DNA of 64,000 nucleotides from Escherichia coli (GTDB lineage Bacteria; Pseudomonadota; Gammaproteobacteria; Enterobacterales; Enterobacteriaceae), in assembly GCF_050920415.1 (NCBI RefSeq), contig NZ_CP169309.1. One strand, given 5' to 3'. Below the pieces are notes generated by a model. The model was not told the origin of the DNA. It ran no database searches and saw only the letters and a list, made by a program, of their open reading frames with translations. Position numbers and translations under genes: made by a program. How positions within the stretch are numbered: the first letter of the stretch is position 1; each line of letters starts with the position of its first letter. Positions 30,908 through 39,525 of this stretch are shown here, one piece after another.

Positions 30908-31122
30908 TTGATTTTATATTGGCGAGGTGACGGGAGTTAAGTAGGATTGCTGCGGGTGCTTGAGGCTATCTGTCTCAGGCATGAATACCAACGGCAGATA
31001 GAGAAAAGCCCCAGTTAACATTACGCGTCCTGCAAGACGCCTAACATTAATCTGAGGCCATATCTATGACTTGCACACGTAGGTTAGCCTCTTACGTGCC
31101 GAAAGGCAAGGAGAAGCAGGCT

Positions 31123-31353
31123 ATGAAGCAGCATAAGGCGATGTTAATCGCCCTGATTGTCATCTGTTTAACTGTCATTGTGACGGCACTGGTAACGAGG
31201 AAAGATCTCTGTGAGGTACGAATCCGAACCAGCCAAACGGAGGTCGCTGTCTTCACAGCTTACGAACCTGAGGAGTTAGAGACCAGGCGAGGGAGAAATC
31301 CCTCGCCACCTCTGATGAGTCAGGCATCCTCAATGCACCCACACTTAACTTGA
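31123..31353 (+). CDS. hokD: Hok/Gef-family type I toxin (HokD/RelF-like) with C-terminal extension
   Basis: MKQHKAMLIALIVICLTVIVTALVTRKDLCEVRIRTSQTEVAVFTAYEPEE matches the Hok family; the expected stop after EPEE is TTA here and the ORF continues 25 codons; GC-rich hairpin GGCGAGGGAGAAATCCCTCGCC within the extension; in frame with an upstream mok-like ORF from 31066. Confidence 0.8.
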   Translation: MKQHKAMLIALIVICLTVIVTALVTRKDLCEVRIRTSQTEVAVFTAYEPEELETRRGRNPSPPLMSQASSMHPHLT

Positions 31354-33076: not shown

Positions 33077-33439
33077 TTGATGGGGATAGAATTTGTTTTG
33101 CCTTACCCGCCGACGGTAAATACCTACTGGCGTCGTCGTGGCAGCACATATTTTGTATCAAAAGCAGGGGAGCGTTATCGCCGGGATGTGGCGCTTATTG
33201 TTCGCCAGCAGCGGCTGAAATTAAATCTGTCCGGAAGGCTGGCAATAAAAATTATTGCAGAGCCACCGGATAAGCGCCGTCGTGACCTGGACAATATTCT
33301 GAAAGCACCACTGGATGCACTGACACATGCGGGACTGCTTATCGACGACGAGCAGTTTGATGAAGTTAATATTATGCGCGGTCAGGTTGTTCCCGGTGGT
33401 CGGCTGGGGATAAAAATCACAGAACTGGAGTGCGCATGA
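33077..33439 (+). CDS. rusA: RusA-family Holliday junction resolvase
   Basis: 120-aa ORF; RusA catalytic core with RRRDLDNILKAPLDAL. Confidence 0.9.
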   Translation: MMGIEFVLPYPPTVNTYWRRRGSTYFVSKAGERYRRDVALIVRQQRLKLNLSGRLAIKIIAEPPDKRRRDLDNILKAPLDALTHAGLLIDDEQFDEVNIMRGQVVPGGRLGIKITELECA

Positions 33440-34101
33440 ATAACCAGTATTTACAGTTTGTGCGTGAGCAGCTCACGATCGCCACCGCTGATTTGAGTGG
33501 AGCAACAAAAGGTCAGCTTGAAGCCTGGCAGGAGAATGCCATGTTCAATACAGGGCGTTACAGACGTAAAAAAATCCGGTACCGCGATAAGGTCACTGGA
33601 AAAATAGTAACGCTGGATAATCCACCGATCCCGGGAAAGCAATCGCTGGCGAAAGGTTCATCAATTGCCCTGGTCAGTCCGGTTGAGTTTTCGACATCAT
33701 CATGGCGACGCGCCGTTCTGTCTCTTGAAGAACATCATAAAGCCTGGCTGCTGTGGTGTTACAGCGGTAGCATTTGCTGGGAGCATCAGATCGCGATAAC
33801 GCAGTGGGCGTGGATTGAATTTAATGCTCAATCCGGTACCAGAAAAATTGCAGGAAAAACTCTGGTGCGCCTGAAGACGTTGAGCTGGTTGGCGGCGCAG
33901 GCGGTAAAAGCTGAGCTTTTTGGTGGGGAAGGTTACGAATACCAGGAACTGGCGTTACTGGTGGGAGTAACAACCAAAAACTGGTCCAAGACATTTACTG
34001 GTCACTGGGTTGCAATGAAACACATTTTTCATCGGCTGGATAGTGAAGCTTTATTGTTAGTGGAGAGAACACGTTCAAAACAAAAGGCGGCATTTTCATA
34101 G
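33436..34101 (+). CDS. putative late-gene antiterminator (Q-like, QuuQ-type)
   Basis: 222 aa immediately downstream of rusA and upstream of a promoter plus terminator pair typical of pR'/tR'; assignment by position, not motif. Confidence 0.6.
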   Translation: MNNQYLQFVREQLTIATADLSGATKGQLEAWQENAMFNTGRYRRKKIRYRDKVTGKIVTLDNPPIPGKQSLAKGSSIALVSPVEFSTSSWRRAVLSLEEHHKAWLLWCYSGSICWEHQIAITQWAWIEFNAQSGTRKIAGKTLVRLKTLSWLAAQAVKAELFGGEGYEYQELALLVGVTTKNWSKTFTGHWVAMKHIFHRLDSEALLLVERTRSKQKAAFS

Positions 34102-34108
34102 CAAAGTA

Positions 34109-34137
34109 TTGCAAAAGTAGATTAAAACGCATATATT
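34109..34137 (+). promoter_or_regulatory. candidate late promoter pR' (approximate)
   Basis: TTGCAA-17 nt-TATATT just after the Q-like gene and about 55 nt before the tR'-like terminator. Confidence 0.45.
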
Positions 34138-34190
34138 TCGTGTAAATCTGATATTTTGCCGTTTTTATACGTGATGGCAAAGCTAGTAAA

Positions 34191-34215
34191 ACCCGCGACC
34201 GAGCGGGTTTTTTAT
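34191..34215 (+). terminator. tR'-like rho-independent terminator (approximate)
   Basis: CCCGC-gaccga-GCGGG followed by TTTTTT. Confidence 0.6.
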
Positions 34216-34355
34216 CCCCCCAAAAAATGGCATAGACATTAAACGTGATGACGATTGTGCCAATACTTTCTCCATCAATGACGCCCCTTGACTGCATGGA
34301 ATCCAATTTGTTATGTAATATGTGTTGATATTTTTGAGTTGTTAATGGTGTTACT

Positions 34356-35069
34356 ATGAATGACAGTGCTCTGCTCAGAAACTCTTCACTTTTTGTTGCT
34401 TATATGGGCTGTCTAGGATGGGGAAGCGCTTATTTCTATGGATGGGGTACTTCATTTTACTATGGCTTTCCATGGTGGGTTGTCGGGGCTGGTGTCGATG
34501 ATGTTGCACGAAGTTTGTTTTATGCTGTGACAGTTATCGTTATATTCCTTATTGGATGGGGAGTTGGTATTGTTTTCTTTTTGGGCATAAAACAAAAGCG
34601 CAATATACAAAATTTGAGTTTTATCCGGCTTTTTCTCGCGATATTGCTGCTTTTTATTCCACCTGTTCTGGAGTTTTCGGTAATTCATCAGCATGTTGAG
34701 CCAGATGTACTGATTTTCTGCATTCTTGCTGCCTTTACAATCACGCTTTTTGTCAGGTCTGGAAGAAGACTTGTTTCAGTCAAATGTTTTTCGGAAATGT
34801 CTTTTATTCGCCATCACCGAATTGAGTTCATGATGGCTGGGTTTATGATTTATTTCTGGGCATTCTCTCTTATTGCCGGTTGGTACAAACCACAGTTTAA
34901 GAGGGAATATCAGGCGATCCACTATGAGAATGTATGGTATTACATTATTGCGCGTTATGATGATCGTCTGGTGTTATCGAAATCATACAGGAGTGGGGGT
35001 AAGAAATTCGTTATATTTAATAGCGGAAATATTAATGATTTTGAAATTAATACTATCAGAGTGCGTTAA
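34356..35069 (+). CDS. polytopic membrane protein (moron downstream of Q)
   Basis: 237-aa ORF in AT-rich DNA; about 6 hydrophobic helices; own promoter-like TTGACT-17-TTATGT upstream; T-rich terminator downstream. Confidence 0.55.
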   Translation: MNDSALLRNSSLFVAYMGCLGWGSAYFYGWGTSFYYGFPWWVVGAGVDDVARSLFYAVTVIVIFLIGWGVGIVFFLGIKQKRNIQNLSFIRLFLAILLLFIPPVLEFSVIHQHVEPDVLIFCILAAFTITLFVRSGRRLVSVKCFSEMSFIRHHRIEFMMAGFMIYFWAFSLIAGWYKPQFKREYQAIHYENVWYYIIARYDDRLVLSKSYRSGGKKFVIFNSGNINDFEINTIRVR

Positions 35070-35243
35070 AATTTCTTGAGTAATGAAGATTTTTACTGCC
35101 CGGCATTGAGCGGTTTTTTTATGCCAGAAAAATGGTGTGGTACATAAAATGTGCTGGTGGTTATTAATACCGGTCTTTCAGCTTGCTGGCTTTTTCGACA
35201 AGAGTTATTGGTATGTCACGTTAACCAATAAAGAGAAAAAGAC

Positions 35244-35441
35244 ATGCTAAAACAGCAGGATATGACCGAAACAGCCAGAGTGGTGTTTAATGAATTAAGC
35301 GTCACTGAACCGGCAACAGTTGGGGAAATTGCGCAGAATACTTACCTTTCACGCGAACGCTGCCAGTTAATACTGACCCAGCTTGTGATGGCGGGTCTGG
35401 CAGATTATCAGTTCGGTTGTTACAGACGCCTTCCGCAGTGA
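35244..35441 (+). CDS. small hypothetical protein, possible winged-helix
   Basis: 65-aa ORF upstream of the methyltransferase gene. Confidence 0.4.
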   Translation: MLKQQDMTETARVVFNELSVTEPATVGEIAQNTYLSRERCQLILTQLVMAGLADYQFGCYRRLPQ

Positions 35442-35591
35442 AGGCTTTTTACTTTGTGGTAATGGGCGGCTGGTGGGTGTTAGCGGCACCTGCCAGCCAT
35501 CTGCTCATGTGTTGAGGTCACAAGCAAACCTCAGGCCCATCTGCTTTGCGCAAAAGCGGTATGAGCCTATCAGAGAAGTGCTTATTGATCT

Positions 35592-36677
35592 ATGGCTAAT
35601 ACTGTAAAAATATCCAGTTGTGAGTTAATCAACACTGATTGCCTGGAATTTATCCAGACCTTATCGGAAAACTCTGTCGATCTTATAGTCACAGACCCGC
35701 CATATTTTAAAGTGAAGCCCGAGGGCTGGGATAACCAGTGGAAGGGCGACGATGATTACCTAAAATGGCTGGACCAGTGTCTGGCTCAGTTCTGGCGGGT
35801 ACTGAAGCCTGCCGGAAGTCTTTACCTGTTTTGTGGTCATCGCCTGGCATCTGATATCGAAATCATGATGCGTGAGCGCTTTAATGTGCTGAACCACATT
35901 ATCTGGGCGAAGCCGTCCGGACGCTGGAACGGGTGCAACAAAGAAAGCCTGCGGGCGTATTTCCCGGCAACAGAGCGCATTCTGTTTGCCGAACATTATC
36001 AGGGGCCATATCAGCCAAAAAATGCCGGCTATGCGGCAAAGGAGCGCGAGCTTAAACAACACGTCATGGCCCCGCTGATTTTTTACTTTCGTGATGCGCG
36101 TGAATCACTGGGAATAACGTCCAAACAGATAGCGGAAGCCACCGGAAAGAAAAACATGGTGTCGCACTGGTTTGGTACCAGTCAGTGGCAGTTACCGAAC
36201 GAAGCTGATTACAGAAAACTGCAGGCGCTGTTCGCGCGTGTTGCAGAAGAAAAACACCAGCGTGGGGAGCTGGCAACGCCACACCAACTGCTGGTCAGCA
36301 CATACAGTGAACTGAACCGGCAATATGCCAGTCTGCTTGAGGAATACAAATCTCTGCGGCGTTATTTTTCTGTATCGGCCGCCGTTCCTTATACGGATGT
36401 CTGGACGCATAAGCCCGTACAGTATTATCCGGGTAAGCATCCCTGCGAAAAACCGGCGGATATGTTGCGTCAGATAATTTCTGCCAGCAGTCGTCCGGGG
36501 GATGTGGTTGCGGATTTTTTTATGGGATCGGGGGCAACAATAAAAGCAGCAATGGGATTGGGGCGTCGCACGATTGGGGTTGAACTTGAGTCCGGGCGTT
36601 TTGAACAAACAGTTGGTGAAATATTGGTGCTGAACGATAAATTGCGAAATGCACAATTAGATAAGAACAGGAGCTAA
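35592..36677 (+). CDS. beta-class DNA methyltransferase (N6-adenine or N4-cytosine), orphan
   Basis: 361-aa ORF; motif IV DPPY near N-terminus (LIVTDPPYF) and motif I near C-terminus (DVVADFFMGSGAT); no adjacent restriction gene. Confidence 0.85.
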   Translation: MANTVKISSCELINTDCLEFIQTLSENSVDLIVTDPPYFKVKPEGWDNQWKGDDDYLKWLDQCLAQFWRVLKPAGSLYLFCGHRLASDIEIMMRERFNVLNHIIWAKPSGRWNGCNKESLRAYFPATERILFAEHYQGPYQPKNAGYAAKERELKQHVMAPLIFYFRDARESLGITSKQIAEATGKKNMVSHWFGTSQWQLPNEADYRKLQALFARVAEEKHQRGELATPHQLLVSTYSELNRQYASLLEEYKSLRRYFSVSAAVPYTDVWTHKPVQYYPGKHPCEKPADMLRQIISASSRPGDVVADFFMGSGATIKAAMGLGRRTIGVELESGRFEQTVGEILVLNDKLRNAQLDKNRS

Positions 36678-37197: not shown

Positions 37198-37476
37198 GTG
37201 AATATTGATGATATTTCCAGGTGCTCCAGCTTGTTGCAGCGTATTGAGGATGTTAATGCTGAACGAGCCAGGGCCTTTAGTCGTTTGACAGTTATATTTT
37301 CTACCCCTGATCGCCTTTCAGGAAAGAACATTGTTTTATTAAACAGTGATGCCATCCATAAGGTTTTTGAAGAGTTCATGGCTGCTAATTCAGAATTGCT
37401 GGCTCTTGTTGAGGAATACAACGAGATAGCCAGCCGTGTCGGTATGGATGAATTCAACGTCATACTTCGTGGATAA
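37198..37476 (+). CDS. hypothetical protein
   Basis: 92-aa ORF followed by a strong terminator. Confidence 0.4.
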   Translation: MNIDDISRCSSLLQRIEDVNAERARAFSRLTVIFSTPDRLSGKNIVLLNSDAIHKVFEEFMAANSELLALVEEYNEIASRVGMDEFNVILRG

Positions 37477-37657: not shown

Positions 37658-38083
37658 ATGTTAGGTATTTTCAAAAAGAAAACCCGCAAGGCCATCACAG
37701 AAGTGAAGAAGATGGAGAACCGTGATGCGGTGGAGGCGACCGTCTGGGGCGCATATTCCATTGCATATGCCGACGGCACCTGCGATGCGAAAGAAATCGC
37801 AGTACTGGAGAAAACTATTGCTGCGCTTCCTGCTTTTGCACCGTTCTCTGGTGAGATTGCCCAGATGAGCGCCAATATCCGCGCCCGTTATGAAGCGTCA
37901 CCGCGTAGTGCGAATGCGCATGCATTGCGTGAGCTGGCTGATGTGGCGGGGACAACTGAGGCGGTTGACGTGCTTTGCCTCTGTCTGGATATCGCTGATC
38001 AGGATGGCATTGGTCCGGATGAAGAAGCGCAGCTCAAGAAAATTGCACAGGCGCTTCAGTTACCACTGGAGCAGTATCTGTGA
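37658..38083 (+). CDS. TerB-like (tellurite-resistance TerB family) protein
   Basis: 141-aa ORF; two D-G-x-x-D-x-x-E-like segments (YADGTCDAKEIAVLE, DQDGIGPDEEAQL). Confidence 0.5.
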   Translation: MLGIFKKKTRKAITEVKKMENRDAVEATVWGAYSIAYADGTCDAKEIAVLEKTIAALPAFAPFSGEIAQMSANIRARYEASPRSANAHALRELADVAGTTEAVDVLCLCLDIADQDGIGPDEEAQLKKIAQALQLPLEQYL

Positions 38084-38232
38084 AAAGTGCGGGCCTTGTG
38101 CTGGCTGCCATCCTGTTGTTTCTGGTAGTGGCAGTGGATTTCACTGGATGGCTGATGTCGGTACTGGCTGATGGTGTGCTGGTGGCGATGGTAACGGTCT
38201 TACTCTGGCCTTTACTTCGCAAATCTGAATAA
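38080..38232 (+). CDS. small hydrophobic protein (about 50 aa), possible lysis-associated membrane protein (weak call)
   Basis: GTG overlapping the stop of the TerB-like gene; VKSAGLVLAAILLFLVVAVDFTGWLMSVLADGVLVAMVTVLLWPLLRKSE; below ORF-track size cutoff. Confidence 0.3.
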   Translation: MKSAGLVLAAILLFLVVAVDFTGWLMSVLADGVLVAMVTVLLWPLLRKSE

Positions 38233-38317
38233 ACAGCCTACAAAAGGTATCTGCGGGTACCTTTGATAAAGTTTTTTAGGGCCGCTGATGGTCCTTTTTA
38301 TTTACAGGAGAATAAAT

Positions 38318-38710
38318 ATGTCTGAACCCTTATCCGGTTCCGGCACTGCTGTGGCGCTCGGCGGGGCGACGGTATTCGGGCTGTTTACCGGGACGGATTT
38401 CGGGATTGTATTTGGTGCGTTCGCTGGTGCGTTATTTGTGGCAACAATGCCGCAGACACTTTCAGCCTGGCGTGTGGCTGCACATTTTCTGGTGTCCTTT
38501 ATTGTTGGTGTGCTTGGGGCCCGTGGTGTGGCCGGTTACATGGCGGAACGTATTGGGTTTAACAGTGCTTCCGTTGATGCGTTGTGTGCGGTCCTGGTGT
38601 CGGTGCTCTCAGTAAAAGTCCTGTCATTCATCCACCAGCAGGAGATTACATCACTGGTATCCGGTCTGTTCTCCCGTCAGCGTGGAGGAGGTGGTGGTAA
38701 TGACAAATAA
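38318..38710 (+). CDS. putative holin (multi-TM lysis protein)
   Basis: 130 aa from Met11 of ORF 38288..38710 with GGAGA RBS; Gly/Ala-rich TM helices; directly upstream of endolysin. Confidence 0.6.
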   Translation: MSEPLSGSGTAVALGGATVFGLFTGTDFGIVFGAFAGALFVATMPQTLSAWRVAAHFLVSFIVGVLGARGVAGYMAERIGFNSASVDALCAVLVSVLSVKVLSFIHQQEITSLVSGLFSRQRGGGGGNDK

Positions 38711-38978
38711 TCTTCCAGGATTACTGAATGCGGCGTTATGTACGGTTATCGTACTGACGCTTTTTTTCTACCGCAGAAAAGAGTCCCGACACAAACCGCT
38801 GATATCGTGGTGCGCCTGGTGTCTGATGCTGTTGTATGCGATAACGCCGTTAAGTTATCTCTGTGGTCATCCGTTGCCGGCAGACTGGCTGGTAGTGATG
38901 CTGAACCTGGTGTTTGGTGTCATGGTAGTGCGTGCGCGCGGTAATGTTTCAAAAATTTTTGCTTTCCTGAGTGGCTGA
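38700..38978 (+). CDS. second lysis-cassette membrane protein (holin or antiholin-like)
   Basis: 92 aa from Met7 of ORF 38682..38978; GGAGGAGG RBS; three hydrophobic segments; overlaps the holin stop and endolysin start. Confidence 0.5.
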   Translation: MTNNLPGLLNAALCTVIVLTLFFYRRKESRHKPLISWCAWCLMLLYAITPLSYLCGHPLPADWLVVMLNLVFGVMVVRARGNVSKIFAFLSG

Positions 38979-38979
38979 T

Positions 38980-39525
38980 ATGAAATCGAGAGATGAAATT
39001 TTTGATGAAATCCTCGGAAAAGAGGGGGGGTATGTCAGTCATCCTGACGATACAGGCGGAGCGACGAAGTGGGGAATTACTGAAAAAGTGGCGCGCGCGC
39101 ATGGTTACCGTGGTGATATGCGTGATTTGAGCCGCGGGCAGGCTCTGGAAATCCTTGAGGCAGACTATTGGTATGGACCTCGTTTTGACCAGGTGGCAAA
39201 CCTGTCTCCTGATATTGCTGCAGAACTGTGTGATACCGGGGTAAACATGGGGCCGTCGGTAGCCACAAAAATGCTTCAGCGCTGGCTGAATGTGTTTAAT
39301 CAGAAGGGAATGCTGTATCCGGACATAGTTACAGACGGGGGGATCGGGCCGCGAACCATTAATGCGTTACGTTCTTATCTGAAAAATCGCGGCAGGGATG
39401 GCGAACTGGTACTGGTGAAAGCCCTGAACTGTACGCAGGGTGAGCGTTATCTGGCGCTGGCAGAGAAACGCGAGGCTAACGAGTCGTTTGTCTATGGCTG
39501 GATGAAAGAGCGCGTTGGTTTATAA
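38980..39525 (+). CDS. endolysin, glycoside hydrolase family 108 N-acetylmuramidase with C-terminal peptidoglycan-binding domain
   Basis: 181 aa; GH108 signature EGGYVSHPDDTGGATKWGIT near N-terminus. Confidence 0.8.
   Translation: MKSRDEIFDEILGKEGGYVSHPDDTGGATKWGITEKVARAHGYRGDMRDLSRGQALEILEADYWYGPRFDQVANLSPDIAAELCDTGVNMGPSVATKMLQRWLNVFNQKGMLYPDIVTDGGIGPRTINALRSYLKNRGRDGELVLVKALNCTQGERYLALAEKREANESFVYGWMKERVGL

Follow-up and report, generated by a model that had tools for sequence, protein, structure and literature searches.

A TfpB/STM1630-family inner-membrane protein gene in a candidate moron cassette behind the Q gene of a lambdoid Escherichia coli prophage

What is a gene for a polytopic membrane protein doing directly behind the late antiterminator gene of a lambdoid prophage? 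The question is raised by a 64,000-nucleotide stretch of the Escherichia coli contig NZ_CP169309.1 (assembly GCF_050920415.1), referred to here as the window, in which an open reading frame (ORF) of 237 amino acids (aa) at 34356-35069 follows a Q-type gene, a pR'-like promoter and a tR'-like terminator. The gene takes the first position of the late transcript, in an interval that carries Shiga toxin (Stx) genes in related phages. About one complete E. coli genome in five has a detectable relative, as do laboratory phage 434 and prophages of O157:H7 and O103:H2, and copies also lie beside heat-labile enterotoxin (LT) genes on a plasmid of enterotoxigenic E. coli (ETEC) and between two effector genes of Salmonella pathogenicity island 2 (SPI-2). 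As a sequence feature the locus is ordinary: WP_000999910.1 and its arrangement are already present in public genomes, that of phage 434 included, and the family is catalogued in Pfam, NCBI and PHROGs, with the window gene as a further member. What the family does is the question of interest; an assigned function would carry over to thousands of 'hypothetical protein' entries and might explain the retention of orphan copies by pathogens after prophage decay.

The first part of the answer is family membership. Residues 17-237 of the window protein match phrog_1521, a PHROG family of unknown function, at 1.4e-85, and a precomputed PF27470 'TfpB' assignment is found on all 104 homologues, one of which is 98% identical to the window protein. 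The Prokaryotic Genome Annotation Pipeline (PGAP) gives the name 'STM1630 family protein' to a copy with 89% identity, and one E. coli fragment is annotated 'protein tfpB'. By BLASTP, the window protein shares 48% identity with Salmonella STM1630 over the full length (E = 1e-79) and 29% identity with Moraxella bovis TfpB over 233 aa (E = 1e-26). Two findings identify the Salmonella homologue as STM1630: it is syntenic with sseJ and steB, and its stretch NSSMLLAYLGGLGWG is encoded by a deletion primer from the literature. Alignments and a structural model indicate a shared architecture of about 235-260 aa, with several membrane helices and a C-terminal YY(I/V)L beta module, and family alignments reveal a conserved N-terminal block, SS..AY..W..AYxYGWG..YYG(F/Y)PWW..ARSL. 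On these matches, the window protein belongs to PF27470 TfpB, which corresponds to the NCBI 'STM1630 family' and PHROG 1521. The initial annotation had recognised no motif in the protein, which is contradicted by both the named family and its strongly conserved N-terminal motif.

Standard scans gave little. A Pfam-A scan of the protein produced only a meaningless DUF2070 match (E = 5.7) from a copy of the database without the PF27470 model, and an NCBIfam scan returned nothing from a copy without the STM1630-family model. Among the 5027 defence models of PADLOC-DB 2.0, no family was matched at E <= 1. An exhaustive profile search for the family collected 71 clusters, which came without organism names; its Moraxella members were found by scanning one genome per species. 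Literature searches on PF27470 and on the phage 434 genome yielded nothing useful, those under other locus tags for STM1630 added no information, and the name 'TfpB' is also used in the literature for an unrelated ATPase of Acinetobacter baylyi. No function for any family member turned up in the literature, family or structure searches.

The ORF is not a chance reading frame, because its 104 homologues are spread over Escherichia, Shigella, Citrobacter, Enterobacter, Klebsiella, Cronobacter, Salmonella and Yersinia and the ratio of nonsynonymous to synonymous substitution rates (dN/dS) is 0.05-0.1 (Nei-Gojobori method; pairs with unsaturated dS only). This pattern of substitution indicates a real gene under strong purifying selection. 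DNA matches to the ORF occur in 1196 of 5426 complete E. coli genomes (~22%), at up to four places per genome, and at least 80% of the ORF is covered in 459 of the 1196 matching genomes. Its G+C content is 38.9%, against 48.4% for the Q gene, 49.4% for a methyltransferase gene downstream and 50.5% for the window. The protein has four clearly hydrophobic segments and an aromatic and glycine-rich N-terminal segment; the description of a 237-aa polytopic membrane protein in AT-rich DNA, with which the analysis began, is borne out.

An AlphaFold 2 (AF2) model was built from a 48-sequence alignment and replaced an earlier 24-sequence model, raising the predicted local distance difference test (pLDDT) score from 59.5 to 78.5, with a predicted template modelling (pTM) score of 0.71. 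It contains helices at residues 10-36, 47-78, 89-111, 116-138 and 155-181; a beta module of five strands comes after them, at 184-235. Across the 48 sequences, lysine and arginine are in excess in the N-terminus, loop 2 and loop 4. Because of this excess and the positive-inside rule, loop 1 and the C-terminal module are assigned to the periplasm, and the predicted topology is a cytoplasmic N-terminus, five helices and a periplasmic loop 1 and C-terminal beta module of about 55 aa. Conservation is highest in helix 1 and loop 1, which carry AYxYGWGxSxYYGFPWW...ARSL, and lowest in helices 3-4 and loop 3. Small residues are frequent in helix 1 (G18, G21, G23, G29 and G31). The family alignment holds no invariant residues with a catalytic look. 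Foldseek searches of AFDB50 recovered only family members and uncharacterised proteins, BFVD gave no match below E = 0.098, and a sequence-profile search of the PDB gave no match.

The position of the gene is best described together with its surroundings. Within 33300-35700, the end of a RusA gene is followed by these features:

33436-34101, plus strand: Q82-type late antiterminator gene (phrog_304 match), the upstream anchor
34109-34137, plus strand: pR'-like sigma-70 promoter, TTGCAA-17-TATATT (promoter scan)
34188-34217, plus strand: tR'-like intrinsic terminator with a 9-bp stem, a 6-nt loop and a T run (folding and homology)
34192-34266, plus strand: left copy of a diverged direct repeat, comprising tR' and post-tR' sequence (local alignment with 35099-35170)
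34288-34317, plus strand: promoter-like element of the candidate cassette, TTGACT, 18 nt, TGtTATGTA (read from the sequence)
34356-35069, plus strand: gene for the TfpB/STM1630-family inner-membrane protein, 237 aa, WP_000999910.1 (ORF, phrog_1521, and PF27470 on homologues)
35099-35170, plus strand: right copy of the repeat, a decayed tR' region in which the T run is kept and the hairpin lost (alignment and folding)
35244-35441, plus strand: 65-aa helix-turn-helix (HTH)-like gene (phrog_331), first gene of a conserved late-leader module and the downstream anchor

The ORF list gives the Q reading frame as 33430-34101, and the start at 33436 is the one annotated in a genome with a 2.2-kb match (33400-35600) that is 100% identical to the window; RefSeq labels the product there 'bacteriophage antitermination protein Q'. 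The Q protein matches phrog_304, 'anti-termination protein Q-like', at 2.9e-104 and shares 77% identity with the Q82-like Q that phage 434 encodes. Eight bases past its stop codon begins the TTGCAA-17-TATATT element, which is taken as the equivalent of pR' because it aligns with the stretch behind the 434 Q gene. The tR' hairpin (34188-34211), with its G+C-rich stem, and the T run that follows fold at -14.2 kcal/mol (z = -3.96; none of 200 shuffles as stable) and are homologous to the hairpins behind Q in phages 434, 1720a-02 and phiP27. A simple terminator scanner did not pick up this hairpin; the folding test did. A leader RNA stopped by this terminator would be about 70 nt long. The order first proposed for this segment, a Q-like gene, then a promoter-like element, then a strong tR'-like terminator, is thus confirmed by the phrog_304 match, the promoter scan and the folding test.

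Two side observations concern this upstream region. A weak Rfam match to the Salmonella small RNA isrJ, at 34141-34212 on the plus strand (E = 0.38; 23.4 bits, the gathering score being 37), coincides exactly with the leader RNA predicted between pR' and tR', and IsrJ may itself be a prophage late-leader transcript. Further upstream, the window holds a Hok/Gef-like ORF at 31066-31353, a position at which the annotation of a closely related genome has a partial Hok/Gef pseudogene; in that genome the same prophage also contains, further upstream, a gene of the zeta-toxin family.

Whether the gene has a promoter of its own is less clear. The initial annotation had proposed TTGACT-17-TTATGT; both hexamers are present (34288-34293 and 34311-34316), but TTATGT matches TATAAT at only two of six positions and makes a poor -10, and an 18-nt spacer with an extended -10, TGtTATGTA (34309-34317), is the better reading. 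A consensus promoter scanner does not call the element, and promoter-like sites in the region are not enriched (5 found, 4.7 expected from shuffles). The element is kept in the 434-type relatives, whose proteins share only 56% identity, and in the orphan copy of an Escherichia sp., in which the upstream sequence diverges from that of the prophage copies beyond about 95 nt from the start codon and the ORF list contains no Q. In front of the Salmonella, Yersinia and Citrobacter genes, the sequence bears no relation to that of the window and the element is not conserved. An independent promoter for the candidate cassette is therefore best described as plausible. At the other end of the gene, the segment 35099-35126, first read as a T-rich terminator, does have a T run but forms no stable hairpin (-6.2 kcal/mol, z = -0.38, with 72 of 200 shuffles as stable), being a decayed copy of tR'. 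Because no effective terminator lies behind the ORF, the gene would be co-transcribed with whatever follows.

The flanks of the gene suggest how it came to be there. By local alignment, 34192-34266 and 35099-35170 are diverged copies of each other, and both align with a tR' and post-tR' region that is present as a single copy in the Stx phages 1720a-02 and phiP27. From 35099 on, the window is collinear with these two phages: the 65-aa HTH-like gene, labelled 'TrmB family transcriptional regulator' in phiP27, is present in all three and is followed by a DNA methyltransferase gene, which in the Stx phages precedes tRNAs and stx. Phage 1720a-02 has nothing between tR' and the 65-aa gene; in phiP27 a gene of the GIY-YIG nuclease family (locus L037, 452-1681) fills the slot between Q/tR' and the 65-aa gene. 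Because the flanks are copies of tR' and collinearity with the Stx phages resumes at 35099, the window is read as holding a cassette of about 830 bp, consisting of the promoter-like element and the ORF and bracketed by the duplicated tR' region. The alignments further point to the site between tR' and the 65-aa gene as a recurrent insertion point, because the GIY-YIG gene holds the same slot in phiP27.

Two of the usual marks of a moron are present: the gene is present or absent at the same site among collinear genomes (1720a-02 and phiP27), and its base composition is unlike that of its neighbours (38.9% against 48-50% G+C). A terminator of its own is lacking, as 35099-35126 folds no better than shuffled sequence. 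The proposal of an extra AT-rich membrane protein gene directly behind Q, pR' and tR' of a lambdoid prophage stands, and the gene is absent from the collinear Stx phages. The accompanying claim, that this is the slot of stx and other morons, holds in part: the GIY-YIG gene of phiP27 does occupy it, but stx lies further downstream, past the 65-aa gene, the methyltransferase gene and the tRNAs.

In Stx2 phages, the tRNAs and stx come after a module made up of the 65-aa and methyltransferase genes (35244-36677 in the window). In the closely related genome no tRNA gene or stx is annotated after this module, and no tRNA search was made on the window; instead, a hypothetical gene (37198-37476), a TerB-family gene (37658-38083) and a DUF3927 gene (38080-38232) come before the holins.

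The genomic settings of other family members are varied. Members lie behind a Q82-like Q in the window, in phage 434 and in the O157:H7 and O103:H2 prophages, behind lambda Q at loci L030 and L031, behind a PF06530 Q in Yersinia, and, in a further case, behind a 273-aa antitermination protein that is not the Q of the window and is followed by tRNAs and a holin. These neighbourhoods, in which the gene follows unrelated Q types, show it to be mobile. Other members are intact orphans without Q. STM1630 of Salmonella enterica (L040, 5001-5717) lies between sseJ and steB, a Citrobacter rodentium copy adjoins lpxR, the Escherichia sp. copy is near bioA and bioB, and another is found on a 261-kb plasmid rich in insertion sequences (IS). 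On the ETEC plasmid NZ_CP122717 (L048, 486-3213), a copy 79% identical is divergent from the adjoining eltA and eltB, the genes for LT, among IS elements. The lipid A deacylase gene lpxR, directly beside the orphan in C. rodentium, recurs in phage 434 and the O157:H7 and O103:H2 prophages, where it is inverted within a disrupted Q gene just upstream of ylcG-Q and the tfpB-like gene; its positions in these four settings are L001, 666-1625; L050, 167-1126; L052, 166-1125; and L006, 2863-3823.

Outside the enteric bacteria, single family genes are set among housekeeping genes in Pasteurellaceae and Neisseriaceae. The copies of Pasteurella canis and of a metagenomic relative are flanked on both sides by the same housekeeping neighbours, with no variable island. 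Distant members (L042-L046, E = 1e-7 to 5e-4) adjoin SRAP (YedK-like) genes; one is located at a prophage end beside umuDC and tail-fibre genes, and another beside an AAA_21/AAA_23 ATPase gene pair resembling defence modules. In Moraxella bovis, M. lacunata, M. equi and M. oblonga, type IV pilin genes adjoin the family gene on one or both sides; it is presumably the tfpB of the pilin inversion region. An adjacent ORF of 322-328 aa in M. lacunata and M. equi begins MSKTYIGIDIAKNTFD; we take it to be the invertase gene piv, recognised by its sequence and not by a profile scan. The tfpB gene is intact in M. bovis (261 aa; L013) and shortened to 195-197 aa in the type strains of M. lacunata (L016, 5001-5588) and M. 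equi (L018, 5001-5594). No pilin gene was found near any of the enterobacterial, Pasteurellaceae or Neisseriaceae members examined, the window gene included, so that the link is confined to Moraxella.

Published experimental data concern STM1630, which is described as a gene of function not known, in a region bound by H-NS and with its own mapped promoter (PMC6785131 S1 Text). Two single-nucleotide polymorphisms in its -10 disrupt that promoter in African strains of sequence type 313 (ST313), and the gene is expressed in SPI-2-inducing medium and inside macrophages (PMC6785131 S1 Text). It clusters with SPI-2-co-regulated genes (PMC2639726). Signature-tagged STM1630 mutants were attenuated in calves and chickens, according to the citation of Morgan 2004 in PMC6785131 S1 Text. 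An STM1630 mutant was also hypermotile in a screen (PMC4219756), a clue to function that has been set aside because a clean deletion failed to reproduce it (PMC4534456).

Of the functions that might be assigned to the window gene, an envelope-level role in lysogenic conversion or host fitness is preferred, at roughly even probability, because of what is known of STM1630, the orphan copies that pathogens have retained and the housekeeping neighbourhoods in Pasteurellaceae. Under this proposal, the moron cassette of about 830 bp would have been placed by recombination within the tR' region, leaving a diverged duplicate of tR' on its right side. The gene would have to be read from pR' with the late genes once Q allows read-through of tR', and would probably also be expressed in the lysogen, weakly or conditionally, from its own promoter, silenced by H-NS as for STM1630. 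Because it has no recognisable catalytic motif, the protein would most likely bind or assemble with a partner in the envelope or inner membrane, acting through its periplasmic face. The resulting change in the cell envelope would benefit the host bacterium in animals, and the protein would probably have no function in lysis. Lambdoid phages would bring the gene into enteric bacteria, where it would be kept after prophage decay owing to this benefit.

A number of observations count against such a role. The STM1630 phenotypes are modest and in part unreproduced: deletion in strain 4/74 raised, rather than lowered, replication within macrophages (PMC6785131 S1 Text), and the hypermotile phenotype is not one of the seven that clean deletions confirmed (PMC4534456). 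The linkage to toxin and effector genes may merely reflect shared prophage ancestry. The promoter of the window gene is weak by consensus and appears conserved with the 434 lineage only, and the periplasmic placement of the C-terminus follows from the positive-inside rule alone. Searches of AFDB50, the PDB and BFVD provided no partner, ligand or structural analogue.

The main rival, which is considered less likely but still a serious alternative, is superinfection exclusion or abortive infection, in which the protein, made in the lysogen, would block phage DNA entry or collapse the membrane on infection. A prophage membrane protein gene in a classic accessory position, with a possible promoter of its own, would suit such a device, and the movement of the gene between unrelated late regions, the presence of up to four divergent alleles per E. 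coli genome, and the pairing of highly variable helices 3-4 and loop 3 with a conserved periplasmic face are in keeping with it. The small-residue-rich helix 1 resembles oligomerising membrane helices, and distant members lie at prophage ends or beside ATPase genes in variable regions. However, none of the 5027 PADLOC models was matched, the Pasteurellaceae and Neisseriaceae copies are surrounded by housekeeping genes, the neighbours being identical in two related loci of Pasteurella type, and STM1630 is regulated with SPI-2 and is not constitutive. A phage phenotype for the family was also absent from the literature found.

A helper of the lytic cycle, that is, a late protein that tunes the timing of lysis (antiholin-like or membrane-conditioning) or aids virion production, is improbable. 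The gene is the first of the Q-dependent late transcript, upstream of the lysis cassette, and would be co-transcribed with the late genes for want of an effective terminator behind it; however, many family members are chromosomal with no phage nearby, orphan copies are kept after prophage decay, and the collinear phages manage without the gene. The prophage has separate holins and a GH108 endolysin at about 38288-39525, 3.2 kb downstream. At 237 aa and five helices, the protein is unlike known holins, antiholins and spanins, and its PHROG matches are to families of unknown function only. The idea of a holin, antiholin or spanin is rejected on this size, the position, those matches and the lack of a Pfam match; the initial annotation had rightly judged the protein too large for a holin, and its distance from the lysis genes agrees.

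Least probable of all is an accessory factor of type IV pili or pseudopili that would act on the E. coli ppdD/hof or type II secretion pseudopilins and change piliation: the four Moraxella species with pilin-linked genes, and an outline like that of the TfpY/FimB-like proteins, with N-terminal membrane helices and a periplasmic beta domain (PMC11841053), speak for it, but no non-Moraxella member examined has a pilin gene nearby, tfpB is shortened in M. lacunata and M. equi, the TfpY-like proteins are described with three helices and two beta modules against five helices and one five-strand module in the model, and the named family members found, the 71-cluster profile search having been without organism names, include none from Pseudomonas, Acinetobacter or Dichelobacter, so that a general link to type IV pili is rejected.

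The envelope-level, host-fitness role thus remains the preferred reading for the window gene. For the family as a whole, a broader view is offered tentatively: its members may be widespread prophage-borne inner-membrane effectors that act via a conserved periplasmic face, either as exclusion or abortive-infection devices or as host-colonisation factors, and that have been spread by lambdoid phages among E. coli, Shigella, Salmonella and Citrobacter alongside toxins and effectors.

Comparison with known systems helps to place the window gene. The TfpY/FimB-like pilin accessory proteins promote pilus assembly and have three N-terminal helices and two beta-sheet modules (PMC11841053), whereas the window model has five helices and one five-strand module, a comparison made by description only; they are encoded next to the major pilin gene, a position held in the present family by the Moraxella genes only and not by the window gene. 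The accessory genes found between Q and the lysis genes of lambdoid phages, such as stx and the GIY-YIG gene of phiP27, are closer in genomic terms: the window gene is likewise an optional insert of the late leader with a deviant base composition. Another point of reference is provided by Bor and Lom of phage lambda and by RexB, which are membrane morons expressed in the lysogen. No relationship in sequence or fold was found between the window protein and stx, the phiP27 GIY-YIG protein, Bor/Lom or RexB, and textbook morons have a far clearer promoter and terminator than the window cassette.

Within the family, the TfpB proteins of M. bovis and M. lacunata, on which PF27470 was founded, have the same length class, helix pattern and N-terminal motif as the window protein, but are encoded inside a pilin gene inversion region and not in a prophage late region. 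STM1630 belongs to the same PHROG and Pfam family, and its gene is AT-rich like that of the window; it differs in being a chromosomal orphan located between sseJ and steB, both of which are SPI-2 effector genes, and in its 5' region, which is unlike that of the window gene and is not preceded by a Q. Measurements of expression and phenotype exist for STM1630, whereas the window gene is known from sequence alone. The nearest counterpart in position is CPT_434_68 of phage 434 ('putative membrane protein', OL657226), whose product is 56% identical to the window protein. This gene and the O157:H7 and O103:H2 prophage copies (WP_001302581.1) occupy the same place behind a Q82-type Q, pR' and tR', and the 434 type shares with the window the TTGAC...TGtTATG promoter-like element and a similar post-tR' sequence. 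It is, however, a different allele, and the genes behind it encode a DUF3927 protein, a sialate esterase and a pinholin, whereas behind the window gene comes the module of the Stx-type phages with the 65-aa HTH and methyltransferase genes.

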